DNA of 64,000 bases from a virus (IMGVR_UViG_3300005253_000655:3683-67682), one strand, 5' to 3'; positions 15,382 through 62,956 are shown, numbered from the stretch's first letter. Translations and numbers: made by a program. Notes: a model not told the origin generated them from the letters alone.

Positions 15382-15390
15382 TGTTGTCCG

Positions 15391-15819
15391 TCATTTCTTA
15401 CCCTCCTCTAGTAATCGTTGCGTTCGTGCTTCACCTACCTGCTTCTCCCAGTCCTCCAAACTCTCCGGCTCAGGTGGCAACACACCAACAACAGTCAAAG
15501 GGTTACCCTCCTGTCCTCCCACATTGACATCCACAGCAGTCCCATAACCCCTGTTCTTGGCATACGCTGCCAGGTAAGTCTTAATCGCCTGGAAGTCCAG
15601 CACATTAATCAAGTCCATCAACTTCCCTTCCACATGATCAATCAGCCCCTCCTTCACATCATGACACATACCCTTAAAATCCTCATCCTCAGCCCGCCAC
15701 AGGTAGTAACAGGCTCTACTTATATTCATAGCCTTACACGTATTCGCCACATGTCCTTGATTTGCTTCAAGTAATATGATAAACAGGTCCTTTTTGTCTT
15801 GCACCGTTAGCTCGTTCAT
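15391..15819 (-). CDS. terS: Terminase small subunit
   Basis: N-terminal HTH GHVANTCKAMNISRACYYLW..EDEDF; AIK.YL...KNRGY; upstream of terL. Confidence 0.75.
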   Translation of the reverse strand: MNELTVQDKKDLFIILLEANQGHVANTCKAMNISRACYYLWRAEDEDFKGMCHDVKEGLIDHVEGKLMDLINVLDFQAIKTYLAAYAKNRGYGTAVDVNVGGQEGNPLTVVGVLPPEPESLEDWEKQVGEARTQRLLEEGKK

Positions 15820-20665: not shown

Positions 20666-20766
20666 GCGCAGGGTGAAGAGTAAGACGGGGGAAGGGTGCC
20701 ATTGTCTTGTGGGCAACCAGGGGCAGTGGTTAGCCGCCCTCGCCACTCTGCACAACTGTTGGTAAC

Positions 20767-20910
20767 CATACACGAGGAGGAGGTTGGAGGCATAGCTGCC
20801 TCTCTGAGACGGACGGAGTGCCACAGAACACAGGCTGACGAGTCACAGTGGACGGGCATTACTCTAGGCGGTCGAATTGCACTAGTCTGGTGTGAACCTC
20901 CTCGTGTATG
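20767..20910 (+). ncRNA. Candidate structured RNA with RNase P S-domain-like double T-loop
   Basis: 14-bp perfect closing stem CATACACGAGGAGG/CCTCCTCGTGTATG; AGTGCCACAGAA...AGTGGACGG inside. Confidence 0.5.
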
Positions 20911-20928
20911 TTTATCAGCATAATTAAT

Positions 20929-21009
20929 GGGGTGGAATTGGTTTCGACGGGTGCGAGTCCATCAATCGGGCGCATTCGGAGCGGGGTTCGATCCCCCGCC
21001 ACTCCACCA
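20929..21009 (+). ncRNA. Minimal tmRNA-like RNA (tRNA-like domain only)
   Basis: GGGGTGG...GGTTTCGACGGG 5' end, G3-U70 pair, T-arm CGGGG-TTCGATC-CCCCG, ACCA end; no tag ORF. Confidence 0.8.
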
Positions 21010-21386: not shown

Positions 21387-21476
21387 GGAGAGTTGGCCGA
21401 GCCAGGTAAGGCACCAGGTTGCTACCCTGGAATCAAGGTTACACTTGCACAGGTTCAAATCCTGTACTCTCCGCCA
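21387..21476 (+). tRNA. tRNA-Ser(GCT)
   Basis: Cloverleaf with long variable arm, anticodon loop TTGCTAC, G73 + CCA. Confidence 0.9.
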
Positions 21477-27590: not shown

Positions 27591-27918
27591 AAGTTAAACC
27601 CTCCTGTGGGTACTTCCAATTTTTCGGTGAATGTAAATTCTGTCTGCAGTTCATGCATGTTATACGGTCAGCATCTGCCTCTTGGTGTAACCTGTGTCCA
27701 CACGTTGTACACTGCCCGTTCTCCTTTCTTTCCCTTTTCTGTTTGACACTCCTTTCCTGTTCTGCTATCCAGTTCTTTTTATGGTACTCCTTTCTTTTGG
27801 TGGAGGCTTTAAACAGGCATGCCGTGCACTTTACAAATGGGGGTTGCAAAGGCTTTGGGCATTCCCTGCATAACCCCGCAGCCTTTCTATTTCTCCTATT
27901 TTGCTCCACGCTATACAT
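27559..27918 (-). CDS. Cys-rich Zn-finger protein
   Basis: Four CxxC pairs. Confidence 0.55.
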   Translation of the reverse strand: MYSVEQNRRNRKAAGLCRECPKPLQPPFVKCTACLFKASTKRKEYHKKNWIAEQERSVKQKRERKENGQCTTCGHRLHQEADADRITCMNCRQNLHSPKNWKYPQEGLTYEIIKSSDAG

Positions 27919-30900: not shown

Positions 30901-31309
30901 AAGGTATACCGTGGACCCTGTCCATGCTGACATTGCCCAGGATCTGCTTTGTTGCCACAGCCCCTACAGTCCCGATGACGGAAGGATTTACAATGTCCAG
31001 TTCTCTATGTAGAAACTTCCGGCGACACGTGTCCAGGTGAACGGCCTTTGACTTCTTCACAATGCATTTCACACATTTAGTGACATAGATGTCTTCGCGG
31101 TCAATGTAATTGGCACGCAAGAGGTTGGTGAATTCCTCGCCACCTTTAGACCCCCCGTGGAAAGGAATACCGAATCTGTCTTCCCAGAATCCGGGGGAGT
31201 CTCCGAGAATGAGGAGCCTGGACGACAAATTACCCGTACCCCAAACGATCTGGGTACGAGTTTCGTGTAGTTCACAGGCTGTGCATGTGTGTGCTAGTTC
31301 ATTTTTCAT
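27911..31309 (-). CDS. polA: Family A DNA polymerase with N-terminal family-4 UDG-like domain and 3'-5' exonuclease, intein-containing
   Basis: CTACEL..GDSPG..VKC; Exo DTE/HNALYD/YAARD; TGRLS..NPNL; motif A DY|SQIEMR; HDD motif C. Confidence 0.92.
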   Translation of the reverse strand: MKNELAHTCTACELHETRTQIVWGTGNLSSRLLILGDSPGFWEDRFGIPFHGGSKGGEEFTNLLRANYIDREDIYVTKCVKCIVKKSKAVHLDTCRRKFLHRELDIVNPSVIGTVGAVATKQILGNVSMDRVHGIPFRVMVGNSMRTVVPLYDPSAGVVDSQALLWCQQDFRTLYEVLSMQREPVHLEDVFKDREFYSEMRTGLSIRNILEGHDVVAIDTEWAKNKFWCLSFSVVPGESIVVMEDRHEALEEVAKHVAKPHVLTLNHNALYDLPVLSSVGIVPARFADTMVIAYLLQSEPQGLKPLAFRHLGMVMNAYKDMVGEATKNKAIDYLNQVLMQDWLAPEPFLVWEKDAARVKQPQNIAKKSLRILNDTANKGADPADRWKKIKLNEGRGQVEAVYGEMPEGDLSDIDHDDAVDYAARDADATLRLWPILWGMIETRGLQEVFWRDMHAMLMVVDMMAAGIEVDLAHFEELSGYLQGKADVLENMIMRKAKSSFNLASPLQVSKKLFVDLGLPQIRGNSTDDKVLSRLVDKHPIIPLIREWRGYDKLLNTYTRQLPKKVQQDGRIHTTFRITRVITGRLSASNPNLMAQPTRSKEGKMVRKGFVAAEGCSFLSCDYCLTGDEKIITEYGEQPIKDIKVGTGVLSSKEGISLQFEKVIAAAKVGRAPVYKLRLEDGTSIKCTADHKLMTYEGECVELKNLRVGDRLAHVKESYAGPQKYSTWYLRNYHNSFYKHRLIAKYKYGDCPEGFEVDHKNGNAVNWHSDNIQYLPITENRAQGGRRYWRAVKNGERSDEKRLEALREGLKSRRTYKGKENPNYAKFKRDYLTCPCCGKEFVQPKCRKAIYCSHKCYIMFKTQNHKIKSIDLVGLRDIYQITVDNTHTYVSQNGLIHSNSQIEMRVAAHEGDDTNMIEIFNKSQDIHTMTAAKMWGLAVEDVDELQHRYPAKRIGFGILYDITGKGLLEQMLSQGATSTLQECEEMIEAWFRVYSGIAQFMQDTKTHAKRHGFVRDMWGRIMYVPGVKAHNMWVKLEALRKAGNAPIQMGAQGVIKQAMGDLVPVLKDLSEMGICRPLIQIHDDILFEIDDHLLPIAVPRIVDVMENAVTLKVPTPVDPKTGKDWGTMDKWNV
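28616..29443 (-). mobile_element. Intein (276 aa) with HNH endonuclease in PolA motif A
   Basis: CLTGDEKI start, block B TADHK, HNH EVDHKNGN...N, end IHSN then Ser. Confidence 0.88.
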
Positions 31310-31570: not shown

Positions 31571-31645
31571 TGGGGTGACCGGCGGGAGTCGAACCCGCTA
31601 AAAACAGATTCACAGTCTGCTGCCTCACCGTTTGGCTCCAGCCAC
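31571..31645 (-). tRNA. tRNA-His(GTG)
   Basis: Anticodon loop CTGTGAA, C73, CCA. Confidence 0.85.
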
Positions 31646-39263: not shown

Positions 39264-39293
39264 ATTATACCATAATGATTTGCCATTTGTCAA
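39264..39293 (-). promoter_or_regulatory. Sigma-70 promoter
   Basis: TTGACA-N18-TATAAT with TG extension. Confidence 0.75.
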
Positions 39294-39805
39294 GCTTTTT
39301 CTTCCTTGCCGAAAATATATTTCTTGAGTCGCGTTAATACACTGTTGTCAAGAGGACGCTGCTGCCTAGCCTGATAAGCTCGCTGCCTGCAGCGGTCACA
39401 ATCCGTCAACGTGTGGCATGCGGCACAAAGCACGCAGCCACACTCCAAGCACGTGAAAAACCTCTCATAGGAAGCTATGCAGATGTTTACCTTGCAATCC
39501 ACACACCCTTCCATAGTCAAAAGGTTACCCCCCAGGTCTTCGCACATTAGATTCAACATAGTTATTTCCCCTCCTTAAGGTAGGATCTTATCCCAAAGTT
39601 TTTTTATCCAGCTTTGTTCCTGGTAAGCTTGCTGAATGCACTCATCACACTTTTCTTCGTAATAGCAAGTTGAGCAAAGTGTGGCGTGACAATCCCTACA
39701 ACGAAAGAAATCCTCACTGTACAATATGCAGATATTTACACCGCAATCTTTGCACTTCTCTACTTGCATCTCTGTCCCTCTCCAATTCTCATATTCTTCT
39801 AGCAT
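39290..39805 (-). CDS. Two paralogous Zn-finger proteins (39290-39559, 39575-39805)
   Basis: C.DC.VNICI....FF.C..C...LC..C....CD.C.Q.AYQ shared. Confidence 0.65.
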
Positions 39806-44594: not shown

Positions 44595-44669
44595 TGGAGC
44601 GGGAGGCCGGAATCGAACCCGCGACATCAGGGATCAAAACCCCGCGCTCTACCACTGAGCTACACCCTC
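44595..44669 (-). tRNA. tRNA-Gln(TTG), degenerate
   Basis: Anticodon loop TTTTGAT; two acceptor-stem and one T-stem mismatch. Confidence 0.6.
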
Positions 44670-44678
44670 AGGAATAAT

Positions 44679-44752
44679 TGGAGCCACATGTAGGAATCGG
44701 ACCCACTTCATCTGATTACAAAACAGAGGTTCTACCAATGAACAAATGTGGC
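44679..44752 (-). tRNA. tRNA-Thr(TGT)
   Basis: Loop TTTGTAA, T-loop TCCGATT, CCA. Confidence 0.75.
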
Positions 44753-44753
44753 T

Positions 44754-44828
44754 TGGTCCGAACGAGGGGATTTGAACCCCTGACCTCACGCTTATCAAGC
44801 ATGTGCTCTACCACTGAGCTACGTCCAG
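44754..44828 (-). tRNA. tRNA-Ile(GAT)
   Basis: Loop TTGATAA, A73, CCA. Confidence 0.9.
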
Positions 44829-44834
44829 ATATTG

Positions 44835-44910
44835 TGGCAGTCTGTACGGGATTTGAACCCGTGATCTTCGCCGTGACAGGGCGACGTCTTGACCGCTAGA
44901 CCAACAGACT
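44835..44910 (-). tRNA. tRNA-Asp(GTC)
   Basis: Loop CTGTCAC, G73, CCA. Confidence 0.9.
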
Positions 44911-44911
44911 G

Positions 44912-44988
44912 TGGTTGCGGAGGAGGGAATCGAACCCTCGTTGAATCAGGGACATGAACCCTGTCAGGTTACCAACAACCTCTCCGCT
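44912..44988 (-). tRNA. tRNA-Met(CAT), initiator-like
   Basis: GGG/CCC anticodon stem, unpaired 1:72. Confidence 0.8.
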
Positions 44989-44997
44989 ACATTAAAA

Positions 44998-45083
44998 TGG
45001 TGGGTGAGGGAGGATTCGAACCTCCTGAGTCAATGACACGAGATTTACAGTCTCGACCGCTACCAATTACGGGTTACTCGCCC
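44998..45083 (-). tRNA. tRNA-Tyr(GTA)
   Basis: Loop CTGTAAA, long variable arm, CCA. Confidence 0.9.
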
Positions 45084-45302: not shown

Positions 45303-45992
45303 TTACTGAATTAGATCTACTAAGCCCCACTCCTTAGCTTGCTTGGCACTGAACCACGTGGTGGTACGCTCTCTCTCTATCCACTCTTCCACGGATAGGT
45401 TTGAACGGTCGGCTAGAACAGCAATGTAGCGTTCTTGAAGTAAACCCATCAAACGATTCTGAGACCGTATATCGGAAGCTGTTTCTCTGCCGGGCCATTT
45501 CCATAAGGATGCTTCGTGTACCATAAATATAGTACCTGGTGCGGCTATACGGGTATCTGCGACTGCGAAGATCGGAACTGCGGCGCTAGCTACAAGACCG
45601 GATGCACTGGCTGTAACTGTAAATCCTAGGCGTTGGGCGCGTTTGATCTGATCAGCTAAGGCCAAACCGGAAAAGGCATCGCCACCCGGAGAAGATATAA
45701 ACAGGTTTATTTTGATACGTTCAGGATTAGCGTCCCTCCGAGCGTACAATATGGAGAGATCTTTTTGCATATTGGTTAGGTCACCAACCGTGATGGAGGA
45801 ATAGAGCTGCATGTAGATCTCATTGCCCTCCACAAAGGTGGTGCGGGACAACTCCCCCCTCTTGTCCTTGGAAGGATCGGAACCCTCTTGGATTACAATA
45901 GTGGTGCTGGCAGCTTCAACGCCTCCCGCCCCTCCACCAAACAATAAAACAGCAAACAAGATACCTACTCCTACTCCTCTAAATGTTTTCAT
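45303..45992 (-). CDS. ClpP-like serine protease with N-terminal signal/anchor
   Basis: SSPGGD, GLVASAA (Ser), FMVH (His), TWFSAKQAKEWGLVD. Confidence 0.85.
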   Translation of the reverse strand: MKTFRGVGVGILFAVLLFGGGAGGVEAASTTIVIQEGSDPSKDKRGELSRTTFVEGNEIYMQLYSSITVGDLTNMQKDLSILYARRDANPERIKINLFISSPGGDAFSGLALADQIKRAQRLGFTVTASASGLVASAAVPIFAVADTRIAAPGTIFMVHEASLWKWPGRETASDIRSQNRLMGLLQERYIAVLADRSNLSVEEWIERERTTTWFSAKQAKEWGLVDLIQ

Positions 45993-50616: not shown

Positions 50617-53600
50617 CTATCTTATTTCAAGTACCTTTTCGGTTATTTTGTCGATTTTTTCATTCATTCTTTTGTAGATCTTTTGGTAGCGTATCCTTAT
50701 CTTGTCCTGCGAGGAGCCGGAGCGCATTAACTTCTTGTAATCGCTACGGAACTCTCTCTTGATATCCAAGATCAGGTATTTAAAGCTCCGGAGCCTGTTC
50801 GCCCTTTCCACGCTGTAATCAATGGAGCGGATCTTGAGACCCAGGAACACGTCGAATATAGCCTCAGTGAGGCTCCTTTCACGCCCTGCGAAGTCCTTAT
50901 CCCCTGTGGCGGCGGATATGAGCTTATTGAACCCGAAGGAACCTGGGGCCAAGCCTGGAGCTGCCTGACGCCATAATTCCATAGCCAGCTTCTTCATGTA
51001 TTCCCCTCCCTCATCCACGTCCTTGATCGTGAGATCTTGGCCGGTGAAAAGGACTTCGTTGAAAGCCACCTCTGCAGCGTACACATAGACAGGGTGGTTG
51101 GGCAAGAAGGGACGGAAGGCTATGCGGGATTGTCCCCACTGTTCCGCCACGTCACCCCAAGGCAGGATGTAGGAGAGATCCAGCCACTTTGTTGACCTGC
51201 CATCGTCGCTTTTGTAAGGAAGCTTCATGTGGGAAAACTGTCCAGGGAACACGCTCTTGCGCATATAAGCAGGTAAGACCTTCTTTTCCCTCTCCGCTTC
51301 CTCCTCACTCTCACCGTTGACGCGCCGGGAAATTCCCTCGGCAGCGAGCATCAACATCCAGATTGCCGCAACCCTCCAAGGTGTGCGTATTGCCATGCGT
51401 GCCATACGAGGCATAGCCTTGTAACTAAACGTGATAAAGGGCGCATACCAACGCTTGGCCCAACGGATAGCAGGGGGTAGCTTGCTGTAATTGAACAGGC
51501 CTTCCTCAGCTTTCTTGGCTGCAGCCTTGATGGATGCACCGCTCTTTCGGGCATTAATGAACACGGCAAGCTTGAAGAACTGCTCTATTGCCTGGTACGA
51601 TTGCCCTGGCTTGTCCGCGAGTTTACGCACGAGGCTACTGGACTTGGCCAGGAAGTTTCCGCCTTTGATCGCGGCAGCATCGGTCAGGAACTTAGTTACC
51701 TCTACCCCAGACCATTCATTTCCAAGCAGCGGTGTCGTCATGGCCTCTTTCCAATAACCGTCCTTGTTATACATATCTATAGCAGCTCTTGCATAGATAT
51801 CCCCACGCCAGGGCGCTAAGTCCTCAGCCCAGGCCAGGATAGTATTTGACATTATATTACGTGCCTGAGCCGCAGGGTTGTAAACAACCTTCCCCGTTTT
51901 CCACAGTCGCAACGTGGCATCCCAACTCTTAGTCAAGACATTCACTTGCTTAACTGCTTCATTCAAGTCATCATGGATGAATTTGTCCACCATCATGCCG
52001 GACAATGCGCCAAGCTTGTCTGTGACGGGCAGCGGTAGCCATCCTTTCACGTTTTCAAACACAGGCTCTCCGCGCAATTTCATTTCATTCCATGCCTTGG
52101 CGTCCATTGACCAGGACTGGTTTTCAGCTATGGTGTTGAACATGCGGATCAGTTCCATGTCATGGGTCTCTTGGCTTATGCCTTTCATGACGAGGAACGG
52201 AGCCTTGGTGATTTCTCCCAGTGTCTTGCGGTACTCGGCGTTCAGGTTCTTTCTTTGCTTGGTGAAGTTCTGCGAAGCTCTGGGACGACCCCGTAGCCAG
52301 CCAGTAAGACGGTTCATAAAGGTCTTCTCCACCTCAATGGTCTCATAGGCCCTGAGCAGGTAGTGCTTGCCGGACATTGTGTAGTGAGTTTGAATGCGAC
52401 TTAGGATCTCCCTGCGCTTCTTCAGCTCTTCCTTCATCTTTTTCTTTATAGCAGCTCTACCTTTGCGGAGCACGGCAGGGTGGAAAGACTTAATTGTGTT
52501 CATCTTTTCCAACATGGTCGTAATCATATGCTTTTGAAACTTCTTAGTGATGAATACTGTATCCCCGGTCTCACCTTCGAGAGCTGAAACGGAATCCTTT
52601 ATGGCGGAAATCATAAGGTCTGCCTCGCCAGTTGTAAAGCCACGAGACATGAGAGCCTCATGCACTCGACCTTCATTGGCTTGGGTTAGCTTGTTCACTT
52701 TTGTGCGATACTTGCCCTTTTCAACTTCTTCCGTGGCGGATAAAAGTTCATTTTCCAATACTTTAGTTACGGATTTCACAACCTTCTCGGTCTTGACAGT
52801 GGGCAGCAGGCGTTTCTCCATCTTCTTGACTTCCGCATCAATCGCATCAATCTCACGGAATTTGTCCGCAATGGCTTTACGTGTGAGCTGCTTGAACCTA
52901 TTGTCCGCGCCCAAGATACCCAGACCCGTCAGCTCTGATTCCAGGCGCTGAAATACCCTTGCAGCTTCGAGAGCGTGCTTGTACTTGTCATGCTGTGTGG
53001 TGATGGAGCCCTGGATAATCTGTGAGGCTCGCACCTGTTCTGCCGGGGTCAGGGCGTTGATTGCAATCGCAAGCTCTTCAGCCTTGGCCCGGTATTGGGT
53101 TATTTTGAAGTTGGTATCATCGCGCAGTGCAATGAATTGGGAAGACTTCCCGTAATCGGTGATGATACCCTTGTTGACAGCTTCCACAAACCTAGACTTT
53201 TTTCCTAGGTTGAGGGGCAGGTCATGGCTTGCCCACTTCCAGACGGGGTCACCAACGTGCTTTACCCAGAGGTCTTTGAGAGGTCCCGTGATGCCTTGCT
53301 GCTTGATGTAGGTGTCTATTTCATGGCCTTGATGTTGAGCCAGCACCGTGGAGCCTGGACGCACAGAGTACAGTGTGTCGCCTTGTTCTGACGTGGAGCC
53401 CGGAGCGCTTTGCTCTGCGTAAGCGACATCCTGTACAGAAGGCCGGAAACGAATTATCAAGTCATCTGTGGAAATTCCCCCTTGGAAACTATTGAGTGCT
53501 TTTCTCTGGTAGACGTCGAAAGCTTCTCGGGCAGAAACAGACCGAGCTTCTCCCTCGCCCAATAATTTCTGGTACTCCTGAAAGGGCTCGAAAACCTGCT

Positions 53601-56600
53601 TCATCATGTAGCGCAGCCTTGCAGGATCACCTTGGTGCTGTTTGGCGAGCCGTTGCACATTGGGAGTTGCAAATTTCTTATTTGCGATAAAAATCTCCTC
53701 TAAAGAGAATCCTGTCCGGGTAGCGGCGTCTATGAAATTTAAGGCTGTAAAAGCGTTTTCAGGGTTATCTCCATGCTCCAGCATGCCTTCAACACTACCG
53801 CCGCGAGCAAAGCCTTCAATTGCTTGTATTGCATGCTGAATCTCGTGGAGCAAGGTTCCGTAATTCCCGTCGAACTGTATGACGCTCCCACCAAAGGCTC
53901 CTCCGCGTTTCAGGTTTTTAAATACAGGGATATTAGCCAGTTCCGGGTAGGCCTTGAATAAAGTAGGATGATTCAAAACCTTGCGCAATATATTATGGGT
54001 GAATGTTTTCTTACTTCCCAATTTTTTCCTTTTCCATGTTAATCCCTTCGTCATAGAGCCAGAACTATCGTCGATTTCATACTTCCACTTGCCATCAGGA
54101 GATAACCACCATCCTGTCCGTTGCCGAATGCCCTCAGCGTCCGCACCTTCAATGGCGTTAAATCTTCTGGCTTGTTCCAACTTGCTGCCTGCCAGGAATT
54201 CCTTCTGTGCAAGCTCCGACTGCTCACCCATGATGGTGTAGTATGTGCCATCCCATTCTTTCTGACGTATGGGGAACGCGCCGACTTTGATTTGTCCAAA
54301 GTAATCCGCAGCCCGAGAAAAACCTTTCCCTTCCAGACCGTTTTTCGTGATGTTCAGGAGGCGCAACATCTTTTTCCAGAGGGTCTTGAGCCAGTTGGGT
54401 TTGTACTGGGCGTTTTTACTATCCACAATATAGTCAGCAAAAGCGTTTGCCTCGGCCTCTTCTGAGCCGAACAGTGCAGTCATCTTTGTGTGCCATTCGG
54501 CAGGTATCATCAGCATGCGCTTGTAGGCATGGTAGAGCTCATGGTATAGAGCACGCTCCATGTGTGCGATGTCGTCCACGTTATTGGACAGTTCTATCTG
54601 GGCGTAGATACCGTTGAAGGTGGTCTTGCCTAGGATGTCCTCGGCGGTTAGGGGTCTGCCCAAGGTCTTCTCATGGTCCACTATGCTCTTGGCCGCTTGC
54701 TTAGGGTCCAGGGTCAGTACGTCCAGACCTTCCACTGTGACCCGGTCCTGCAACTCTGCGCCGAAGCCAGCGTTCTTGAACCATTGGGGCAGGTTCTTCA
54801 TCAGTTCGGAGATTTCTACAACTTGCTTCGGCGTGACCTTGCCTTTGAACACGCGGCGTAATGCGAATTTGGCAGACCCCAGGAACCCTTTATCTCTGAA
54901 AACGGATTTGATTTGTTCAGGTTTAAAAGCAATAAAGGATTGCCTGATTTCATCTGTAGTTCCTATAGCCTCAAATTCTGTAATGTATAGAATTCCATCA
55001 TACCCCTTTTTCAGCATTGCTTTACGCACATCGTTGGAGTCTTTAAACTTTGAGAATTCGGAAGCAGTGAAAGGGCCTTCGTTAGTCGGTCCAAGATGCT
55101 CCTCTAGCATACCCATGTCATTCCAATCTCCAATATCAGTAACAAGATTGTAGGGGTTTTGTAAACTGAGATATGCAGGTATTACACTCTCACCTGTCGG
55201 TTTTTTCCCAATGTCTACTCTGTCTGAGGCCACTGCGGAAGAACCAAAGTGCATTCCCAGTTCGCTTATCTCAGGGTCAAAGGTATCAAATACAACATCT
55301 GTTCCATGATACACTACGAGAGGTTTACCTTTGGAATCTACTACTTTAGACTTCTTAAACCATTTCTTAAACTCCGTGCTATCTATAACTCTTTTCGGCC
55401 CTGTTCCTTTGCGTGACGGGGCGAGGGGAACACTAACACCTTTACTTGGCCCGGCTTTGCTTTCTCTTCCTTGAAGCCCAGTTCTTCCATAAGCTGCATC
55501 AACGGCTTGTTGGTAGGTTGCTTCGTGGACTTCTCCTTCTCTGACTGCTTCGGCATAAGTTGCTTCTCCTTTTGTTTTGCCTTCATAGGCTGTAATGTGT
55601 TTTTTGTAATTCTTACGGGACTCTTCTGTGCCCTCCCAACTACCAAGCACTTCTGCATGCATAGGGGTAAAAGTTTCAGAACCCTGGACACTAACTGACT
55701 GCAGACCCTTAAGGACAGCTTTTGCCTTCTCCAGCGTTTCCTTGGTCATCCCTTTCAAAGGAATGAAATGCTCCAGAGTGATGCCAGTCGAAGTGACGAC
55801 TCTGTTATACTCCTTCACGCCTAATTCTGTCAACTTATCATGGAGCTGCTCAGATGTAAATTTGGGATCTACTTTCATCTTCACGTAAATACCATTAGGG
55901 TTAGCATCCGTGTGCAGGATGATCACACCATTTTGTTTCTTGCTCAGGCCTACCAGTTCTGCCATCGCAGCACGCACAGCAGGTAGTGGACCTTTCAACG
56001 TAACGGACAGACCGTGCTCCAATTGCCCGCTTGTGTAGTTATCGAATTTTGCCAAAGTAGGTCTGGTCTCGACAATGTCCACAGGGTACACACTTAACCG
56101 CTTGCGCAGGTCGGTCACGAGGTCCGGCAACAATTGTGAGGCAACAGCCTCCAATGCTTCCACATCCTCGGGCAAGGCCTTTGTGACATCCACAACGTCA
56201 CTAAGCGCGACCATAGCTTCAGTGGTAAACGTCTCCACCTTGACCTCATCAAACATGAAGAAGATGGGTCCGTTGGGAGTGGGCAGTGTGAAGCCTTTGT
56301 ATGCTTGTGAGTTCTGTATCAGTCCGGCGATTGCGTTCATTTTCACCTGGTTGAGAGTGAGCTGCCCGGACAGGACACGAGGGTCCAGTAGTGCTTTTTG
56401 TATGCCTGCACCAATGTAACCCAGGACATCGTTGTCGCCGTCATAGACCTCGTTCTCGTACACAGTGGTCATGTTGGGGACTTTGCCGCGAAAGAAGGTC
56501 TCACGTCTAGTCTTGCCGCTGTACCAGTAGCTCATTTGGACGTAAGGGTTGTCTGCAGTGCTGGATTCCATGCGCTTTAGCACGTCATTCCTTGACCAAG

Positions 56601-59600
56601 GATGTGGCTTGTCGCCTTCCGCAGCGGTTGAGAGGTCTGTGAGTTCCTTAATTTCCAGCCCGGTTAAGGGTGTAATGAAACTGGAAGACTTGTCGCGCAA
56701 TGCCAACATGCGTCTTTTGTCCTTGCTCGTCAGCTTTCGCGGTGCCCGTGCTCCCCTGATCACGAAACGATTTTCGCGTGCGAAGTGGACAATTTTCTGT
56801 CCCTTTTCTTCCGCTGTCAGGCCTAGCATCTTGCGCCCCAGACGTTTCACGGGGTCCACAAGTATGGCATGGTTGAATTCGGTTATTTGAGATGTACCTG
56901 CGCGGGGGATCTCAACCCCTGCCGCATACCATAGAGCTGCCTGGACATCGGAGTTAGTGATGCCTGGGTGTTTGCCAATTAAATCTTCGCGTGCCTGTAT
57001 GATGTCGCTTATGATTTCATTGCTCGCAGCCGTGGTGACTTTAAACCCGCCTGCAACATCCTGGGGGGTCCAGGTGAAATTGTATCCCCAGAGTCGTCCC
57101 ATGTGTCGGTCAATCACGATGGACTCACCGGACTCATCTAGGACAGAGTGAACCATTGCCCCGATCTTGCGTCCGTAATAACTGATACGGTCCTCCATCG
57201 TGACACGTGTTTCTTTACCTTCCCAAATCTCCCGAGCCTTTTTAGTTGCGGCTTCGCTCATACCTCCTAGATTGCCTTCTTTTCCTGCTTCCAGATCTCT
57301 AACAGCACCGGCAGCTATAGTTGCGGCAGAAGGTACGTTCCTGTTTGCGGTACTGATTGCTTGGATCTTAATGTTCTTAACAATGTCTTCCCGCGACATA
57401 CCAGCTTTCTCGAACTTGATCATGTCATCGTGCCACTTCTTATACCAACTCAACGCTGAAAGGTTCTTCTCCACCAGAGCGTTAATCATCTTACGCCGCA
57501 GCGCAGGGTCTCGGGGAAGTATAGGGGCGTTAATGATGAGAAAGTTCACGCCATCAATTGTTACACGCTTTTCCTTAATCACGGACTCACCGCGAATAGG
57601 GTGTTTCAAGACTCTGTCTGTTTCCACTACCTTGTGGCCAGCGGCTTTGAGTAGGGAGACAGGGCCTTGTATAATTCCGGCTTTCTTCTCCGCGTCGTAT
57701 GTGATGACGAAGGGGTTCTCGTGCGCCGTTGCGTGTAGGGATAATTTGCTCCCATGCTTGGCTATATGCTTGTCGTACAGTTTACCGAAGGCGAGATTTC
57801 CCGTTTTGACGTAGCCAGTCATGACGCGCTTTAAATCTGCGGGAATCTTGCGAGCTGCAAACACCATTTCACTTTCAAAGTTGCCTTGACTGACCTCGTC
57901 GAATGCAGTCTGATAACGGCCAGAGACTTTCTGTACCTTTGTTCTGGCTTGCGCCTTGGTCATGCCAGCATCCCGATACTTCTTGTATAAGCGAGGGAGC
58001 ATTTTGGAAGGGGACAAGGAGTCCACAACCACTTCTGTACGTTTGCTCTTCGTGTCATAGTCTTCCAGTGCCTTTTGCATGACACGCTTCATCTCGGGTA
58101 TCTTGCGGGTCTCCATAGCGACCATGACGTCGGCGTGACTGGTACTGGGGGACAATTTATCCGCACCCGCAGCGGGTACGCCTTTTTCAATCTTAGTCTT
58201 TACATCTGAAACCTCCTTAAACACGGGAGTCTTATCCAGCATCTCACTACCGAACGCCAGCACCTTTGTGTAGAATCCCTCGTGTAATTTCTTATCCTTG
58301 AGGTAGGACCGGGATATAATGTTTTCATCTACGTCAGTCTCAGTGGCTTCTGATATCTGCTCTCCTATGGAGGTACCAGCGTACACGGCCATGTTGTATA
58401 TGTTAACGTGAGAGATTATGTCCTTGTTCTTTTTAAGGAAGTCCAGAGTGTTCTGATAGGTCTCTGTGGTCTCCGTCCATATCTTTCCATCCTTGGTCTT
58501 CCCCGCCAAACCGCTCATTATGTTGGGGATGAAGGCGATTCCGTCTTCACGTAGTTTGGCCACGGCCTTGTCAATGAGTTTCCTGTTTGCGGGCTTCTTA
58601 AGTCGTCTCAGGATATCGTCATTGTAGGACTCCACGCCTAATTCCACGTACTTGACCCCGGCTTTCTTTAAGAATTCGGGGTCTAACTTAAGGTATTGCG
58701 GGGCAGTTGTCTGTATAATGAAACCTTGAAATTTGGGATTTTGTTTCTTAAGCTTCTTGTATAGCTCCTCCAGGTAAGTGTAATTGGGAGCCTGCCCAAA
58801 GGTCTTATCATCCATGTAGACAAGGGTGAAGTCTAAATCTTTAAACGTCTCTACCTGTTTGTCGATATTGGTCTGGGTGAGTGGCTCCACATTTGATCCT
58901 ACAGTACAGAACGCACAGCTATGCGCACACCCTTTGGCAGAACACAGTCTGGGTACAGTTTTAGTGCCTTTGAAGTGTCGGTTGTCAACACCTCGTTTAT
59001 ATGGTATACCTTCAGCTTTAGCGGCATTTTGGAGGGATAATCGAAACTCCACGTTGGGCAGATCTTTAAAATAACCCTTGTCAACATAGCCACCTACAAT
59101 AATTTTGCCTTTATAAATTTTGGCTATCTCACGTATAGACTCCTTATTAGCATCCATTGCGCTGAACATGACAAGCTTGTATCCGGCTTCGTTAAGTTGT
59201 TCAGCTAGTTTTTTGGGATCTCGGGCAATGATTACATCGGAGTTAGGGAATGTGGCAGCTCCTTCAGATATCCATGTAGGAATCTCCCAGAAATCTTCGG
59301 ACTTGTTGTATCCTTCCCTTTTAGAGTAGAGTTTGTCAAAGTAAGGATCGGCTTGATCCGTCTCTGCTCTGGTGGCTTTGAAGTCGATCTGCACCATTGC
59401 AATACGCTCAGATCTAGGAACTACATCTTTCGCCCTGGGGTCCGGTATGGTCAGGTTTTGTTTTCCTTTGGCAAGGGCGACGGTTATAGCTTTCTGATAG
59501 GTGGGCGCTATCACCTGATCCCTAGATATAACTGCCCCTTCCCGTTTGATTTTTTTCTTGGTGGCATAGTCCTGCAGGTTAGTGACTATATCTTTTGTTG

Positions 59601-61644
59601 TGATCTTGTCAAGAGGTAGTGAGAAAGTTGCACCATCGAAGTCGGTATCCTTGGCCCTAGAAGTGAAAGTCTGTAGCCCCATCATAGGCTTGGCATCCTT
59701 CTCCAGCTTGGCCTCGGGGAGTTCTTTGGTGACAACCTCAACAGCTTGGTCTGCGGTGACAAACTCCTCCTTGGTCTCCGCTATTTTGGTCTCAGCTTTC
59801 GCTAGCTTGGCCAGGGGACTTGGGCCTTCTTCGCCTCCAGTTTCAACAACCTCTTCATCTGCCAGTATCTCGTCCAGAGTGGCTGTCGGAGTGGGCGGAG
59901 CAGGTTCAAGCGCACCTATAGCGGGGTCTAATACATGTGTGATGTTGTCATAAGGCTTGTCGCCTTCCTTGACTGTACCACCGAACCTCACGTCATCTAC
60001 GGTAAGATTGTAATTGTCGGCTAATTCCCTTAGATCCGCATTGACTCCTTCATATATTTTACCCTTACCGTCTACAAGGAAGCTATTACCCTTCTTCCCT
60101 GGCTCAGTACCACTTGTTACTTTATAACGTCTTGTTTGATGTGCAAGACTAACCCCACCTATAAAAGCTGCCATTACTGCAGCCACATTGCCTTCCTGTA
60201 TTCCTTGAGACTTGATCTTATTCAAAGTCTCCTTGCTGAACATATTGGCAAAATGCTCTGACAGTGTGTCATCCTTGTTGAGTCCAATTAACTCCGTCCA
60301 TACCTCTGGGATTACTTGCAGGAATTCTACTCCCCACTCTGTACCCATAGTTTCCAGCATGGTTTTAATTCGTTGACCGACCAAACGCTTAGGGGCCACC
60401 GCTCTTAAGGCAAAACCTATGCCCCAAGCCTCCATAGACGCCTGTAGAACACCGTTAACTAAACCCGCTGTCAAAGCACGCTGAGGCTCCACGCCCTGTG
60501 CTAGGAGCTTCTCATAGGTACCTCCCACAATCAAAGGAAGTATTGCCGCACGTGCAACATCTGCGCCTGCTTTACGGGAGAGTTTACTGGCCTCCTTTTT
60601 TGTGAGCACACCAGCGCCTTTCTTTAACGCAAGTGAGCCGATAGCCTTACGAGTTAGTGTACCTGCCGCTTTAGCAGAGAGCGCCCCTGTACCAAAAGAA
60701 AGGAGAGAAAGGCCAACCATAGGCATCATGCCGACAAAGTCTTCCCAGAAACCTGAAGACGGACCCTTGAACTCTGGAGAGCTTTCCAGTGCTTTAATAA
60801 TTCTATGTGCATCTGCTGTTCTTGCTTCATCTTCCGGCTTAATTCCGAACGTATCCAACGTAGCAGCAAATCCAGGTATAGATCTGTAAAGAGCTTCTCT
60901 GACACCGCCGTCCTCCAGGCCCAGATCTTTACGCACTTGACCAAGGCCTAGCATAGTCTGCAAGTATTCCCTCCCCATCCTCTTGGTTCCTTCAATTAAG
61001 GCACCTAAAGCACGTTGAGGGTTCCAATCGGGTTTCTTCATACTCTCGGAGTCGAGAGGTCCAAGCTCTTCATCTATGGCTTGTAAGCGTAAGGCTTCTT
61101 TATCCCACATATTTGACAAGGCTTCCTGGGACGTAAGCTGACCAGTCTTGGCCTTGAAATCTGCAAGCTGGTCCTCGTACTCCCCGCCTACAGAGAGGTA
61201 GAAGTCTTCTATTTCCCCTGACTTCACCTTAGCATCGAACCCACTGGCTACGGCGTTGAAGTCGTTGTTCTCGTCCCACAGGCTCCGTATGGCAGCATCA
61301 GCCTTCGGACCCATAGAATCGGACTCCAACACAGCGCCTTGGATACGGGACATCTTGATCTCCGGCTCCATAGCGGACCATCTCTTGACGTAACCGGGGC
61401 TTAGTTCCTGTCCACCCATCTTTCGTGGCTCGTGTAGGAAGTATTCATCCTGATCTTCAAACTTATACACACCGGCCATCTCGTCCGGGCGAGTAGTCTG
61501 GGAGAGGGCATAGCTAGGCGCGGGTGCGGGTGCATCCTCGAAGCCAAAGTCAAACCCTTCATAGCTTAGCGCGGAGTCTTCCTTCATGTCGAAACCAAAG
61601 TCAAACCCTTCGTAATCGTTATCTGTCTTCTGGGACGTAGCCAT
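50617..61644 (-). CDS. Giant polyvalent (ejection-type) protein: radical SAM, glycosylase-like, ART-PolyVal, two zincin HExxH, LPD23
   Basis: GCAHSCAFC; VIDRH..VQAALW; VYHGT..YL..NP..GYDG..QIKS; HELYH; TGW..PDGKWKYEIDD; HEIQH. Confidence 0.85.
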   Translation of the reverse strand: MATSQKTDNDYEGFDFGFDMKEDSALSYEGFDFGFEDAPAPAPSYALSQTTRPDEMAGVYKFEDQDEYFLHEPRKMGGQELSPGYVKRWSAMEPEIKMSRIQGAVLESDSMGPKADAAIRSLWDENNDFNAVASGFDAKVKSGEIEDFYLSVGGEYEDQLADFKAKTGQLTSQEALSNMWDKEALRLQAIDEELGPLDSESMKKPDWNPQRALGALIEGTKRMGREYLQTMLGLGQVRKDLGLEDGGVREALYRSIPGFAATLDTFGIKPEDEARTADAHRIIKALESSPEFKGPSSGFWEDFVGMMPMVGLSLLSFGTGALSAKAAGTLTRKAIGSLALKKGAGVLTKKEASKLSRKAGADVARAAILPLIVGGTYEKLLAQGVEPQRALTAGLVNGVLQASMEAWGIGFALRAVAPKRLVGQRIKTMLETMGTEWGVEFLQVIPEVWTELIGLNKDDTLSEHFANMFSKETLNKIKSQGIQEGNVAAVMAAFIGGVSLAHQTRRYKVTSGTEPGKKGNSFLVDGKGKIYEGVNADLRELADNYNLTVDDVRFGGTVKEGDKPYDNITHVLDPAIGALEPAPPTPTATLDEILADEEVVETGGEEGPSPLAKLAKAETKIAETKEEFVTADQAVEVVTKELPEAKLEKDAKPMMGLQTFTSRAKDTDFDGATFSLPLDKITTKDIVTNLQDYATKKKIKREGAVISRDQVIAPTYQKAITVALAKGKQNLTIPDPRAKDVVPRSERIAMVQIDFKATRAETDQADPYFDKLYSKREGYNKSEDFWEIPTWISEGAATFPNSDVIIARDPKKLAEQLNEAGYKLVMFSAMDANKESIREIAKIYKGKIIVGGYVDKGYFKDLPNVEFRLSLQNAAKAEGIPYKRGVDNRHFKGTKTVPRLCSAKGCAHSCAFCTVGSNVEPLTQTNIDKQVETFKDLDFTLVYMDDKTFGQAPNYTYLEELYKKLKKQNPKFQGFIIQTTAPQYLKLDPEFLKKAGVKYVELGVESYNDDILRRLKKPANRKLIDKAVAKLREDGIAFIPNIMSGLAGKTKDGKIWTETTETYQNTLDFLKKNKDIISHVNIYNMAVYAGTSIGEQISEATETDVDENIISRSYLKDKKLHEGFYTKVLAFGSEMLDKTPVFKEVSDVKTKIEKGVPAAGADKLSPSTSHADVMVAMETRKIPEMKRVMQKALEDYDTKSKRTEVVVDSLSPSKMLPRLYKKYRDAGMTKAQARTKVQKVSGRYQTAFDEVSQGNFESEMVFAARKIPADLKRVMTGYVKTGNLAFGKLYDKHIAKHGSKLSLHATAHENPFVITYDAEKKAGIIQGPVSLLKAAGHKVVETDRVLKHPIRGESVIKEKRVTIDGVNFLIINAPILPRDPALRRKMINALVEKNLSALSWYKKWHDDMIKFEKAGMSREDIVKNIKIQAISTANRNVPSAATIAAGAVRDLEAGKEGNLGGMSEAATKKAREIWEGKETRVTMEDRISYYGRKIGAMVHSVLDESGESIVIDRHMGRLWGYNFTWTPQDVAGGFKVTTAASNEIISDIIQAREDLIGKHPGITNSDVQAALWYAAGVEIPRAGTSQITEFNHAILVDPVKRLGRKMLGLTAEEKGQKIVHFARENRFVIRGARAPRKLTSKDKRRMLALRDKSSSFITPLTGLEIKELTDLSTAAEGDKPHPWSRNDVLKRMESSTADNPYVQMSYWYSGKTRRETFFRGKVPNMTTVYENEVYDGDNDVLGYIGAGIQKALLDPRVLSGQLTLNQVKMNAIAGLIQNSQAYKGFTLPTPNGPIFFMFDEVKVETFTTEAMVALSDVVDVTKALPEDVEALEAVASQLLPDLVTDLRKRLSVYPVDIVETRPTLAKFDNYTSGQLEHGLSVTLKGPLPAVRAAMAELVGLSKKQNGVIILHTDANPNGIYVKMKVDPKFTSEQLHDKLTELGVKEYNRVVTSTGITLEHFIPLKGMTKETLEKAKAVLKGLQSVSVQGSETFTPMHAEVLGSWEGTEESRKNYKKHITAYEGKTKGEATYAEAVREGEVHEATYQQAVDAAYGRTGLQGRESKAGPSKGVSVPLAPSRKGTGPKRVIDSTEFKKWFKKSKVVDSKGKPLVVYHGTDVVFDTFDPEISELGMHFGSSAVASDRVDIGKKPTGESVIPAYLSLQNPYNLVTDIGDWNDMGMLEEHLGPTNEGPFTASEFSKFKDSNDVRKAMLKKGYDGILYITEFEAIGTTDEIRQSFIAFKPEQIKSVFRDKGFLGSAKFALRRVFKGKVTPKQVVEISELMKNLPQWFKNAGFGAELQDRVTVEGLDVLTLDPKQAAKSIVDHEKTLGRPLTAEDILGKTTFNGIYAQIELSNNVDDIAHMERALYHELYHAYKRMLMIPAEWHTKMTALFGSEEAEANAFADYIVDSKNAQYKPNWLKTLWKKMLRLLNITKNGLEGKGFSRAADYFGQIKVGAFPIRQKEWDGTYYTIMGEQSELAQKEFLAGSKLEQARRFNAIEGADAEGIRQRTGWWLSPDGKWKYEIDDSSGSMTKGLTWKRKKLGSKKTFTHNILRKVLNHPTLFKAYPELANIPVFKNLKRGGAFGGSVIQFDGNYGTLLHEIQHAIQAIEGFARGGSVEGMLEHGDNPENAFTALNFIDAATRTGFSLEEIFIANKKFATPNVQRLAKQHQGDPARLRYMMKQVFEPFQEYQKLLGEGEARSVSAREAFDVYQRKALNSFQGGISTDDLIIRFRPSVQDVAYAEQSAPGSTSEQGDTLYSVRPGSTVLAQHQGHEIDTYIKQQGITGPLKDLWVKHVGDPVWKWASHDLPLNLGKKSRFVEAVNKGIITDYGKSSQFIALRDDTNFKITQYRAKAEELAIAINALTPAEQVRASQIIQGSITTQHDKYKHALEAARVFQRLESELTGLGILGADNRFKQLTRKAIADKFREIDAIDAEVKKMEKRLLPTVKTEKVVKSVTKVLENELLSATEEVEKGKYRTKVNKLTQANEGRVHEALMSRGFTTGEADLMISAIKDSVSALEGETGDTVFITKKFQKHMITTMLEKMNTIKSFHPAVLRKGRAAIKKKMKEELKKRREILSRIQTHYTMSGKHYLLRAYETIEVEKTFMNRLTGWLRGRPRASQNFTKQRKNLNAEYRKTLGEITKAPFLVMKGISQETHDMELIRMFNTIAENQSWSMDAKAWNEMKLRGEPVFENVKGWLPLPVTDKLGALSGMMVDKFIHDDLNEAVKQVNVLTKSWDATLRLWKTGKVVYNPAAQARNIMSNTILAWAEDLAPWRGDIYARAAIDMYNKDGYWKEAMTTPLLGNEWSGVEVTKFLTDAAAIKGGNFLAKSSSLVRKLADKPGQSYQAIEQFFKLAVFINARKSGASIKAAAKKAEEGLFNYSKLPPAIRWAKRWYAPFITFSYKAMPRMARMAIRTPWRVAAIWMLMLAAEGISRRVNGESEEEAEREKKVLPAYMRKSVFPGQFSHMKLPYKSDDGRSTKWLDLSYILPWGDVAEQWGQSRIAFRPFLPNHPVYVYAAEVAFNEVLFTGQDLTIKDVDEGGEYMKKLAMELWRQAAPGLAPGSFGFNKLISAATGDKDFAGRERSLTEAIFDVFLGLKIRSIDYSVERANRLRSFKYLILDIKREFRSDYKKLMRSGSSQDKIRIRYQKIYKRMNEKIDKITEKVLEIR

Positions 61645-62956
61645 ATGTGCTCCTGAAATCTTCATCTAATTTTTTAATGTCAGCGCCTTTCTTGGCCTTG
61701 TTCTCTTTTAACACCTTTTCCACATGTTCCAATGCGCCACGTATCTTGGTGTTCAGAGTGGATAAATCTGCGTCGGGGTGTTTTTGTCTCATGCTTTCCA
61801 GCATGGTCTTGGCATGATTGAATCTTGCAATATGCCATTTTGGAGTCTCTCCTGTTATACCATTTCTAGTAACCAGGCTTTTCTCCAGGCTTTTATGCGC
61901 TTGAGGAACTGTCTGTGTCTGTTTCAATTCCTTCTTTGACTCTTCGCTCTTCATTGCGGCCTCTTCTTTAGCTGTGCTTTTCTTCTCTGCCGCAGCCGCA
62001 GTGACGCGTCTTTTCATCAACTCCTGAAACTCCTTGGATTTGCGATCCCACTGTGCCATAGCTCTTTCCACGGCCTTTATCTTGACTTCTTTATTCTCTT
62101 CAATTCTTTTGGAGGATTGTGCGCGAAAGGCTTTCTGTGCGTCTTCCCATCTTCGCTCTTCTTCCTTGTTAAGCCTACCTCTATCCCGCCACAGAATGCC
62201 CTTGCCGAAAACAGCGTCAAAGAGTTTCGGGTATAGGGCACTACTCTTTTCCACTTCATCCGCCACATTGATTGCATAGGGATTGCCTCCCATTCCGTTG
62301 AAGACATTCTGCTCAAAGCTTTTCCTTCCCCTTGCAGTGAAGTCCGGTAGTCGTGCTTGCTCCGGGACACGCTCTTTTGCTGCATCAATGATGGGCTGTG
62401 GCTTTCCTGTCTCTCCTGCTTTGCGTATGCGTGCTATTTGCTTATCTGTAAAGCCCTCTGCTTTAAGGGCTTCCTCGTCAATACCAAGGGCTGTACGGAA
62501 ATCATCCTGAGTCATTCCACCTTGAAGCTTCTTTGTGGGCAGGGTTATCTCCGCTCCAGTGGTCTCGTCCACGAACGTAGGCTTATCACCGAACGTGCCT
62601 GCAGGAGCTTGACCACCTTCGTAGATGCCTTGTTCAGGGCCGAAGCCTGGTACGGAAATAATGGCACCTTCAGCGTTCCGAGTGTTGCCATCCTCATCTA
62701 GCCAATTTCCCTGTCCCGGACCTACGGGTTGTATTTCAAAGGGAGCTTCAGGGTTATCCGGTCCACGTAGTTCTGAGGGACCAAAAAACTCTCCTGTATC
62801 AGAGGCAATTGGAGTGACCTGTTGAGGAGGTCTACTCTGTATGGAGGAGGCACCGGGCACAGCATTTGCTTTACTTTGAAAATCGTCCCAAAATTGAGAC
62901 CTGGCCCCGAAGTTATTGTCTGGATTTACTTCTGTACCTGTTTTTGATCTAGCCAT
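61619..62956 (-). CDS. Probable internal virion/ejection protein
   Basis: 445 aa, Pro/Gly-rich N-terminus and helical C-terminus, upstream of the giant gene. Confidence 0.5.
   Translation of the reverse strand: MARSKTGTEVNPDNNFGARSQFWDDFQSKANAVPGASSIQSRPPQQVTPIASDTGEFFGPSELRGPDNPEAPFEIQPVGPGQGNWLDEDGNTRNAEGAIISVPGFGPEQGIYEGGQAPAGTFGDKPTFVDETTGAEITLPTKKLQGGMTQDDFRTALGIDEEALKAEGFTDKQIARIRKAGETGKPQPIIDAAKERVPEQARLPDFTARGRKSFEQNVFNGMGGNPYAINVADEVEKSSALYPKLFDAVFGKGILWRDRGRLNKEEERRWEDAQKAFRAQSSKRIEENKEVKIKAVERAMAQWDRKSKEFQELMKRRVTAAAAEKKSTAKEEAAMKSEESKKELKQTQTVPQAHKSLEKSLVTRNGITGETPKWHIARFNHAKTMLESMRQKHPDADLSTLNTKIRGALEHVEKVLKENKAKKGADIKKLDEDFRSTYGYVPEDR

Follow-up and report, generated by a model that had tools for sequence, protein, structure and literature searches.

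A radical SAM module carried as an optional cassette in a giant polyvalent phage protein

Introduction

Radical S-adenosylmethionine (SAM) enzymes are thought of as fragile cytoplasmic catalysts. The locus described here encodes one of them inside a very large phage protein, and it raises a sharp question: how can an oxygen-sensitive metalloenzyme work as part of a protein that probably exits the cell within the virion? The locus lies in a stretch of 64,000 nucleotides of viral DNA (IMGVR_UViG_3300005253_000655:3683-67682), which we call the window and to which coordinates refer unless a locus name is given. An original prediction, made from the sequence alone, had placed there a B12-type radical SAM enzyme embedded in a virion ejection or polyvalent protein, injected to modify DNA, RNA or protein at entry. 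The source record comprises 67,682 bp (CheckV completeness, 100%) and represents a tailed phage of ~68 kb, with genes for the large terminase (TerL), portal and major capsid protein. The protein in question has 3,682 amino acids (aa) when read from the first ATG and 3,675 aa when started at the second Met (codon 8).

A radical SAM domain within a giant polyvalent protein

The giant open reading frame (ORF) and the domains recognised in it are located as follows.

50617..61665, minus strand: giant polyvalent-protein ORF (3,682 aa)
58216-59403, minus strand: radical SAM module of two domains, Rossmann-like and then CxxxCxxC barrel
58996..59403, minus strand: N-terminal Rossmann-like (flavodoxin-like) domain (aa ~755-890)
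58216..58953, minus strand: radical SAM barrel and C-terminal helix (aa ~905-1150)
58906..58929, minus strand: CxxxCxxC [4Fe-4S] ligand motif (aa 913-920)
54889..55338, minus strand: ART-PolyVal ADP-ribosyltransferase domain (aa 2110-2259; Pfam, 61.8 bits)
54055..54186, minus strand: LPD23 polyvalent-protein-associated domain (aa ~2494-2537; Pfam, 49.4 bits)

Three domains of the giant protein exceeded the Pfam cut-offs, namely Radical_SAM (aa 911-1056), ART-PolyVal and LPD23, and the presence of the latter two identifies it as a polyvalent protein. It follows the plan of the polyvalent proteins of phages and conjugative elements (Iyer et al. 2017), very large phage or plasmid proteins that combine several effector domains with LPD domains; a Pfam scan detected no MuF domain in it.

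The radical SAM enzyme had been predicted at 58240-59400 (aa ~755-1141), and every motif quoted for it is found in the translation: KIIVGG (aa 854), KGCAHSCAFC (aa 911-920), YMDDKTF, VELGVESYNDDILRRLKK, NIMSGLAG and ETTETYQNTLDF. The Pfam model PF04055 (Radical_SAM; cut-off, 29.5) scored 49.6 bits in the whole giant protein and 56.1 bits (E 6.6e-15) on the excised aa 755-1180, this being the sole PF04055 match of the 67,682-bp genome. In an alignment of the query with 43 short relatives, 29-47% identical to it, PF04055 exceeded the gathering cut-off in 44/44 members, and 30 columns were invariant. Among these are the cysteines C913, C917 and C920 of the ligand motif (44/44; C908 is variable), the P..W of EIPTW, Ser81 and the GG of GGY (KIIVGGY here) in the N-terminal domain, and YxxDKTFGQ, QTT, ExGxE, KP and PN in the barrel.

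The AlphaFold2 model of aa 755-1180, based on the same alignment, reached a mean predicted local distance difference test (pLDDT) score of 90.3 and a predicted template modelling (pTM) score of 0.86. It comprises a five-stranded alpha/beta N-terminal domain (residues 1-130, strands and helices alternating), a barrel and a long C-terminal helix, and thus bears out the Rossmann-like domain expected ahead of the barrel. Using this model, Foldseek returned 107 PDB matches at E<=0.001, the best 50 of which are radical SAM enzymes; the best folds (E 2e-16 to 7e-11) are all of two-domain proteins, namely MtaB, AprD4, MgmA, RimO, TsrM, OxsB, TokK, CysS and MiaB. Sequence searches of the PDB found only Elp3 with the module alone (E 0.05) and RimO as the best match with the family profile (E 4e-10), matches that do not decide the subclass of the module. 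The nearest viral folds in BFVD belong to other two-domain phage radical SAM proteins (11-15% identity, none of the same family), and no PHROGs family matched the module. With profile and structure searches both leading to radical SAM enzymes, we regard the domain as genuine.

The fold of the module is also that of the methylthiotransferases MiaB, RimO and MtaB. Unlike these enzymes, however, the module has no cysteine in aa 755-907, so its N-terminal domain cannot contain an auxiliary cluster of the methylthiotransferase type, and neither a profile scan nor the model showed a TRAM domain.

An optional cassette that recurs in other giant proteins

The DNA was present in three runs from two samples of one study, labelled as marine sediment metagenome. 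Contigs of 1,734 and 1,750 nt span 57988-59721 and 57988-59737, respectively, covering the module and both of its borders with 0 differences from the window. Given these border-bridging contigs, which come from both samples and all three runs, and the 102 independent fusions described below, the misassembly or chimera at the domain borders that the original prediction had allowed for is excluded. A natural insertion or deletion further delimits the element.

58165..59598, minus strand: radical SAM cassette (codons 690-1167, 1,434 nt)

In run X1, a 3,964-nt variant contig (record 6) joins position 58164 to 59599, skipping these 1,434 nt and carrying 93 other nt instead, so that codons 690-1167 are replaced, in frame, by 31 codons. 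Its flanks differ from the window at 23/177 and 21/902 positions. The two cassette forms have similar depths in X1 (9.9 and 11.8), and in X2 the module contig has a depth of 74 and its flanks 113-194, although contig depths are coarse; no contig lacking the cassette was reported in X2 or X3. The module is therefore an optional cassette within a natural population. We found no convincing direct repeats at the cassette junctions, the only candidate being a 27-nt pair of 78% identity ~30-120 nt outside them. This pair (58048-58062 and 59557-59571, minus strand) encodes LQDYATKKK before the cassette and LEDYDTKSK after it, and may reflect chance, a linker or a recombination motif.

The fusion is not confined to this phage. 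A search with aa 790-1130 returned 102 other giant proteins (2,041-5,531 aa) that carry the module at 40-58% identity, all with PF04055 annotated. Their precomputed Pfam annotations include ART-PolyVal (28 proteins), DUF7178 (PF23802; 25 proteins) and LPD38 (19 proteins). When the whole protein was compared with them by BLASTP, only aa ~750-1150 was common to nearly all; other regions were shared with at most 15 and the last 930 aa with none, and the position of the module ranged from the N-terminus to 80% along the protein. Among proteins of 234-746 aa, the search gave 69 matches at E<=0.001, of which 68 had E<=2e-24 and the 69th (E 2e-4) was a generic B12 radical SAM protein, and this gap indicates that the module family is sharply bounded. 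In IMG/VR we detected family members at 73 loci, on contigs of 8.7 to 373 kb. Of the 69 that kept the motifs, 45 lie in ORFs of 1,113-4,989 aa, another 21 occupy closed ORFs (369-562 aa) and the remaining 3 are truncated at contig ends.

A tree of 141 complete modules placed every one of the 89 giant-borne copies in one group of 104 rows (Shimodaira-Hasegawa-like approximate likelihood ratio test [SH-aLRT] support, 93), nested among free-standing phage forms. This group also holds 12 mid-sized rows and 3 of ~455-460 aa, which may be fragments. The topology, rooted at the midpoint only, would fit one main capture followed by shuffling.

The original prediction could not recall radical SAM among polyvalent-protein domains, and the literature that we searched, supplements apart, agrees: it contains no paper on a radical SAM domain in polyvalent or ejection proteins, and the fusion is undescribed there. 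None of the terms radical, Fe-S, iron-sulfur, B12 and 4Fe-4S occurs in the main text of Iyer et al. 2017 (PMC5512222), but LPD23 is absent from it as well, so the domain lists of that survey may sit in the supplements. A paper on N4 brings up radical SAM solely with regard to an HExxH fold.

Cluster ligands retained in a cysteine-poor protein class

The giant protein contains only four cysteines in 3,682 aa (0.11%), all at the cluster motif (C908, C913, C917 and C920), while the other predicted ORFs of the genome average 1.77%. The portal, the capsid protein and the ORFs on either side of the giant gene are likewise at or near zero. The same holds across the 103 module-bearing giants (the query included), which outside the module have 66 cysteines in 281,130 residues (0.023%), with none at all in 71/103. 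In total, 47 of the giants have exactly three cysteines and 42 have four. Exceptions do occur, with 12, 14 and 63 cysteines in three IMG/VR giants. Within the module itself, exactly three cysteines remain in 63/89 complete giant-borne copies, and the median is 3, compared with 9.5 in 40 free-standing forms. Twelve giants that share the C-terminal region described below and lack the module served as a control, and these have 1, 0, 2, 0, 6, 0, 0, 3, 5, 1, 0 and 0 cysteines, the six without any including proteins of 4,671 and 6,408 aa.

From these counts, the giant-protein class appears to be under extreme selection against cysteine, and the module seems to have been purged too on joining it. Since the three cluster ligands were kept despite this purge, the enzyme would need its iron-sulfur cluster; their survival is strong, if indirect, evidence for that need. 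It is thus very probable that the enzyme binds its cluster and is active. Two small ORFs of the same genome are extremely cysteine-rich (15146-15394, minus strand, 12 Cys in 82 aa; 39290-39559, minus strand, 11 Cys in 89 aa), in contrast to the cysteine-free structural block.

Class B layout and the question of cobalamin

According to the original prediction, the enzyme is of the cobalamin-binding type. If so, it would be a class B radical SAM methyltransferase that depends on cobalamin and has DNA, RNA or protein as its target at entry. The layout part of this claim holds. As in TsrM, OxsB, TokK, CysS, MgmA and the PhpK family, a Rossmann-like domain at the N-terminus of the module leads into a CxxxCxxC barrel of the Elp3/MiaB/B12 clade, and class B enzymes are its best family-level neighbours in both sequence and fold. 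The leading NCBIfam rows are likewise class B families, with PhpK (TIGR04479; 54.5 bits, E 6e-15) ahead of HpnJ and the ladderane B12 family. A 'B12-binding domain-containing radical SAM' set ranks third among the nearest ESM Atlas clusters (score 0.97) and accounts for 11 of 30 matches. We also take the Ser...GG spacing of the module to resemble the B12-binding signature, and the operon of one cellular homologue includes a cobalamin adenosyltransferase gene.

The assignment of cobalamin itself does not hold up as well. The B12-binding model PF02310 gave 18.7 bits on the excised module and 24.1 bits on the homologue from Aliirhizobium, weak matches that lie below its cut-off of 32.1; none of the 44 family members exceeded this cut-off, and only 2/44 reached E<=0.01. 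A profile of the N-terminal domain (34 sequences) matched no B12 protein in the PDB at E<=10. Every class B score in NCBIfam was about tenfold under its cut-off (600 for TIGR04479), so that no specific class B family was approached. By fold, the cobalamin enzymes are no better a match to the module than AprD4 or the methylthiotransferases. The top TM-score against the model (0.61, both domains included) belongs to AprD4 (PDB 6fd2), a radical SAM diol dehydratase with a Rossmann-like N-terminal domain, at 16% identity. AprD4 acts in aminoglycoside biosynthesis and is not known to use cobalamin. In further contrast to class B enzymes, the module is only ~400 aa long without extra C-terminal domains, is stripped of its non-ligand cysteines and sits inside a giant virion-type protein. 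A packaged enzyme of this kind would also need cobalamin supplied by the host, and many bacteria lack it. We therefore describe the module as class-B-like in layout and lean against its use of cobalamin, and an entry-stage class B methyltransferase is, on the whole, somewhat unlikely.

A DUF7178-like domain as the commonest partner of the module

The prediction had added a glycosylase-like domain adjacent to the enzyme. Such a domain does lie downstream, but it is not directly adjacent, as it begins ~250 aa after the module end.

56920..57477, minus strand: divergent DUF7178-like domain, predicted to be HhH-GPD (Ogg-type) glycosylase-like (aa 1397-1582)

Clustering of the neighbours of 25 free-standing module loci revealed one recurrent family, found in 9/25 loci within 6 ORFs of the module and named DUF7178 in Pfam. 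In three of these nine, the DUF7178 gene lies directly downstream of the module gene, and in one (L104) it overlaps the stop codon. A hidden Markov model (HMM) built from the nine neighbour proteins and iterated once recognised the domain in the giant protein (E 1.2e-18, positions 15-183). This was supported by hhalign over the C-terminal half of the domain (probability 79%, E 1.6e-5), and 6/6 family-invariant residues are present, with Lys1500 and Asp1519 at family-invariant positions. The domain was found in 61/103 module-bearing giants and in 0/12 of the control giants (Fisher p 5.6e-5), a control set that is small and consists mostly of mutual relatives. Of the domains that accompany the module, this one appears to be the most frequent.

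A profile of 86 DUF7178 sequences matched Ogg-type N-glycosylase/DNA lyases in the PDB (3fhf, 3knt and 9o00; E 0.007-0.03). The alignment to 3fhf and 3knt spans the HhH-GPD Lys/Asp motif, and both residues are invariant in the 86 sequences. The model of the domain is all-helical (pLDDT 76.9), and MUTYH, OGG1 and MutY make up most of its best 25 Foldseek rows (TM 0.35-0.42, with probabilities reaching 0.97); a queuosine-salvage enzyme (DUF2419) is among the weak fold matches. DUF7178 aligns with the Ogg2/AGOG-type HhH-GPD 8-oxoguanine glycosylase/lyases in the region of the K...D motif, and its fold hints at the same superfamily. Unlike those enzymes, it is filed by Pfam as a domain of unknown function, and the similarity to them is weak both in sequence (E 0.007) and in fold (E >0.1). 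A complex prediction of the module with this domain scored 0.00 and gives no evidence either way, and our literature search found no paper mentioning DUF7178. This likeness to glycosylases is the main reason for favouring a nucleic-acid substrate, and a nucleic acid is a serious candidate for the target of the enzyme, if a little short of an even chance.

C-terminal anchor and probable delivery in the virion

Whether the protein leaves the cell is judged here from its C-terminal region and from its genomic setting.

50620..53418, minus strand: conserved C-terminal anchor (aa ~2750-3682, ~930 aa)
12283-13848: TerL
9366-11522: portal
6340-7665: major capsid protein
45303-45992, minus strand: ClpP-like or head-maturation-protease gene, downstream of the giant gene on the same strand

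The anchor is 46-51% identical to the C-termini of eight giants that lack the radical SAM module, over 71-100% of the queried region (95-100% in seven of them). The cargo of these relatives includes GGDEF, RadC and ART domains, and four have an SLT domain (PF01464), a domain typical of podovirus ejection proteins such as T7 gp16. Among GenBank phages, the anchor matched one giant protein of an uncultured podovirus (24.8% identity). The giant gene shares its strand with the TerL, portal and major capsid genes, and the block to which it belongs consists of cysteine-poor ORFs. In addition, LPD38, found in 19/102 module-bearing relatives, also occurs in phi24B gp47, a 2,811-aa polyvalent protein that was reportedly detected in virions by proteomics and for which a role in ejection has been proposed (bioRxiv 10.64898/2026.04.10.717836). 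Most likely, the giant protein is carried in the capsid and enters the host along with the DNA, and we consider delivery in the virion reasonably probable. As a separate observation, the anchor relatives P0324-P0331 include GGDEF diguanylate-cyclase domains together with SLT and RadC, which would mean that cyclic di-GMP synthesis is a phage-delivered cargo.

It could instead be that the enzyme acts in the producing cell, for example in late modification of phage DNA or virion proteins, or that it is cleaved off by a phage protease and never packaged. In the cytoplasm of that cell the cluster could be loaded normally; the ClpP-like protease gene lies downstream in the same-strand block, and 21 phage loci have the module as an ordinary free-standing gene with normal cysteine content. 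There is also a precedent in phage M6, whose gp53 is described as a radical SAM isomerase that acts on DNA after replication and is encoded beside HhH glycosylase-like aGPT-Pplases (PMC8989533). There, too, a radical SAM enzyme of a phage has a helical, DNA-glycosylase-like protein as its partner, but, unlike the module, gp53 resembles spore photoproduct lyase, has no Rossmann domain and is a free cytoplasmic enzyme. The M6 thymidine hypermodification pathway moreover needs 5-hydroxymethyldeoxyuridine (5-hmdU), and we detected no ThyA or ThyX homologue in the genome, hence no 5-hmdU pathway. No cleavage sites are known, and the loss of non-ligand cysteines from giant-borne modules (median 3 vs 9.5) suggests a common fate for the module and the remainder of the protein. 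Action in the producing cell is accordingly unlikely in our estimate.

The ClpP-like gene is far from the capsid gene, and its product could process the giant protein. Thymidine hypermodification was considered in its own right, prompted by the UDG-PolA fusion of this genome and by PMC13697223, and is unsupported for the same lack of ThyA and ThyX homologues.

Cellular homologues and host range

Eight strong matches to the family were found in genome bins and isolates. The giant forms occur in bins labelled Dehalococcoidia (L002) and Polyangiaceae (L003), and the free-standing forms in bins labelled Neptuniibacter and Saccharimonadales and in the isolates Halovulum marinum and Aliirhizobium smilacinae; at a locus labelled Planctomycetia (L004), the tblastn match lacks the exact motif. 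Both isolates are aerobes. With cellular members in these two and phage-type copies in the Polyangiaceae and Neptuniibacter bins, the anaerobic host inferred in the original prediction is unsupported, and the marine sediment label of the runs, compatible with anoxia, is uninformative on the host.

In the two alphaproteobacterial isolates, the homologue is cellular, with ~31% identity to the module (L009:7344-14809; L008:3730-6663), and adjoins genes for a class II aldolase and a PNP_UDP_1 phosphorylase. The Aliirhizobium homologue (L009) is also beside an aldehyde dehydrogenase, an amino-acid-type ABC transporter and a PduO-type cobalamin adenosyltransferase, and in Saccharimonadales the genes on either side encode an APH-family kinase and an inositol-monophosphatase-like protein. 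The module could thus act on a nucleoside or another small molecule, for instance a metabolite that blunts host defence, with DUF7178 cleaving a nucleoside and not DNA, a possibility to which the DUF2419 fold match would also lend itself. Substrates often change, however, at a distance of ~31% identity. The neighbourhood presumably resembles 5'-deoxyadenosine/5-deoxyribose salvage, a metabolic operon coupled to the disposal of 5'-deoxyadenosine, and such neighbours may merely remove this by-product. Given, in addition, that the best sequence matches of DUF7178 are DNA glycosylase/lyases whose catalytic Lys and Asp positions are kept, small-molecule chemistry is distinctly unlikely.

The best explanation and what weighs against it

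Taken jointly, the data are best explained by a radical SAM cassette in a modular, ejected polyvalent protein, whose cluster is regained in the host and which performs nucleic-acid chemistry together with the DUF7178-like domain; we give this explanation somewhat better than even chances of being correct. Codons 690-1167 would form a self-contained cargo cassette encoding a functional enzyme, with a Rossmann-like domain and a [4Fe-4S]/SAM barrel. The giant protein would present variable effector domains in front of its conserved ~930-aa C-terminal anchor, namely radical SAM, DUF7178/HhH-GPD glycosylase-like, ADP-ribosyltransferase and zincin-like/LPD23 regions. The radical SAM domain may travel without a stable cluster or partly unfolded, and would receive or regain the cluster in the reducing cytoplasm of the host. 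The 5'-deoxyadenosyl radical could then be used on a nucleic-acid substrate, in concert with the DUF7178 domain.

Several points weigh against this explanation, besides the small control set and the midpoint root mentioned above. An oxygen-labile cluster on a protein exported through the tail channel is mechanistically awkward, and delivery in the apo form is something that we purely infer. The existence of a strain without the cassette means that the module is dispensable for making particles, and a tblastn search of GenBank phages (INPHARED) found no member of the module family. For the partner domain, Pfam's own DUF7178 model (PF23802) had no match in the giant protein or the genome at E<=1, and the glycosylase fold matches are weak (Foldseek E 0.1-1). 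DUF7178 follows the module in 51 giants and precedes it in 10, with gaps of -738 to +1,770 aa. It is also far commoner than the module, with 11,738 representative clusters, and just 1/7 large DUF7178 proteins has the module; given this abundance, the link could partly reflect shared residence in polyvalent proteins. Finally, the cellular neighbours hint at nucleoside or small-molecule chemistry rather than DNA.

That the module is a decayed, non-catalytic remnant or an assembly chimera is hardly credible, since three ligand cysteines are kept in a 0.023% Cys background, 30 columns are invariant across 44 sequences at 29-47% identity, 102 independent giants have the module and its borders are bridged with 0 differences in three runs from two samples.

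Other features of the giant protein and the genome

Beyond the module, the giant protein contains two HExxH motifs near LPD23, at aa 2375 (54529-54543, minus strand) and aa 2607 (53833-53847, minus strand). The first is inside a weak SprT-like match (E 0.037), and both suggest zincin-like peptidase domains. In its acidic N-terminus, YEGFDFGF occurs twice, 17 residues apart (aa 18-42; 61540-61614, minus strand). A Kyte-Doolittle scan (window of 19 residues, threshold 1.5) detected no membrane segments. The only PHROGs matches to the protein, phrog_21376 and phrog_13543, are of unknown function and cover the ART and LPD23 regions. A tblastn search of aa 1150-2750 against the same GenBank phages matched 69 records; among the matches listed, the alignments cover the ART and LPD23 regions only, as in F116 and the 5,145-aa 'structural protein' of phage 8P. 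An identity as an N4-like virion RNA polymerase was rejected, as the matches listed gave no similarity to that enzyme. Three neighbouring ORFs had no match in this GenBank phage set by tblastn.

The genome also encodes a helicase and an A-family DNA polymerase (27911-31309, minus strand), the latter with an N-terminal UDG domain, a 3'-5' exonuclease and an HNH-endonuclease intein within the polymerase domain. Eight tRNA genes were found, an array of six and two singles. The regions concerned (44595-45083 and 31571-31645, minus strand; 21387-21476 and 20521-21009, plus strand) also hold a transfer-messenger RNA call by ARAGORN, a 489-nt candidate with the tag ALATLHNCW.

Implications for phage biology and the radical SAM family

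Read as a natural experiment, the cysteine pattern singles out the three ligands as indispensable and indicates that proteins of this class as a whole face an oxidising or translocation constraint. For enzymology, the module family is also a source of compact radical SAM scaffolds (~400 aa) whose cysteine content is naturally minimal. For the DUF7178 family, the link with the module is a first functional lead, and it points to unexplored DNA chemistry at infection. In its fullest form, the explanation that we prefer would have a cysteine-stripped apo-enzyme injected and then loaded by the host with iron-sulfur, and perhaps cobalamin, for radical chemistry on DNA together with the Ogg-like domain. 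This complete scenario is improbable as a whole, but, if true, the enzyme could repair damage that the packaged genome suffered outside the cell, or rewrite or erase base marks before host defences act. It would then be the first known case of a radical enzyme being passed from one organism to another, and would represent a new class of entry-stage counter-defence or repair.

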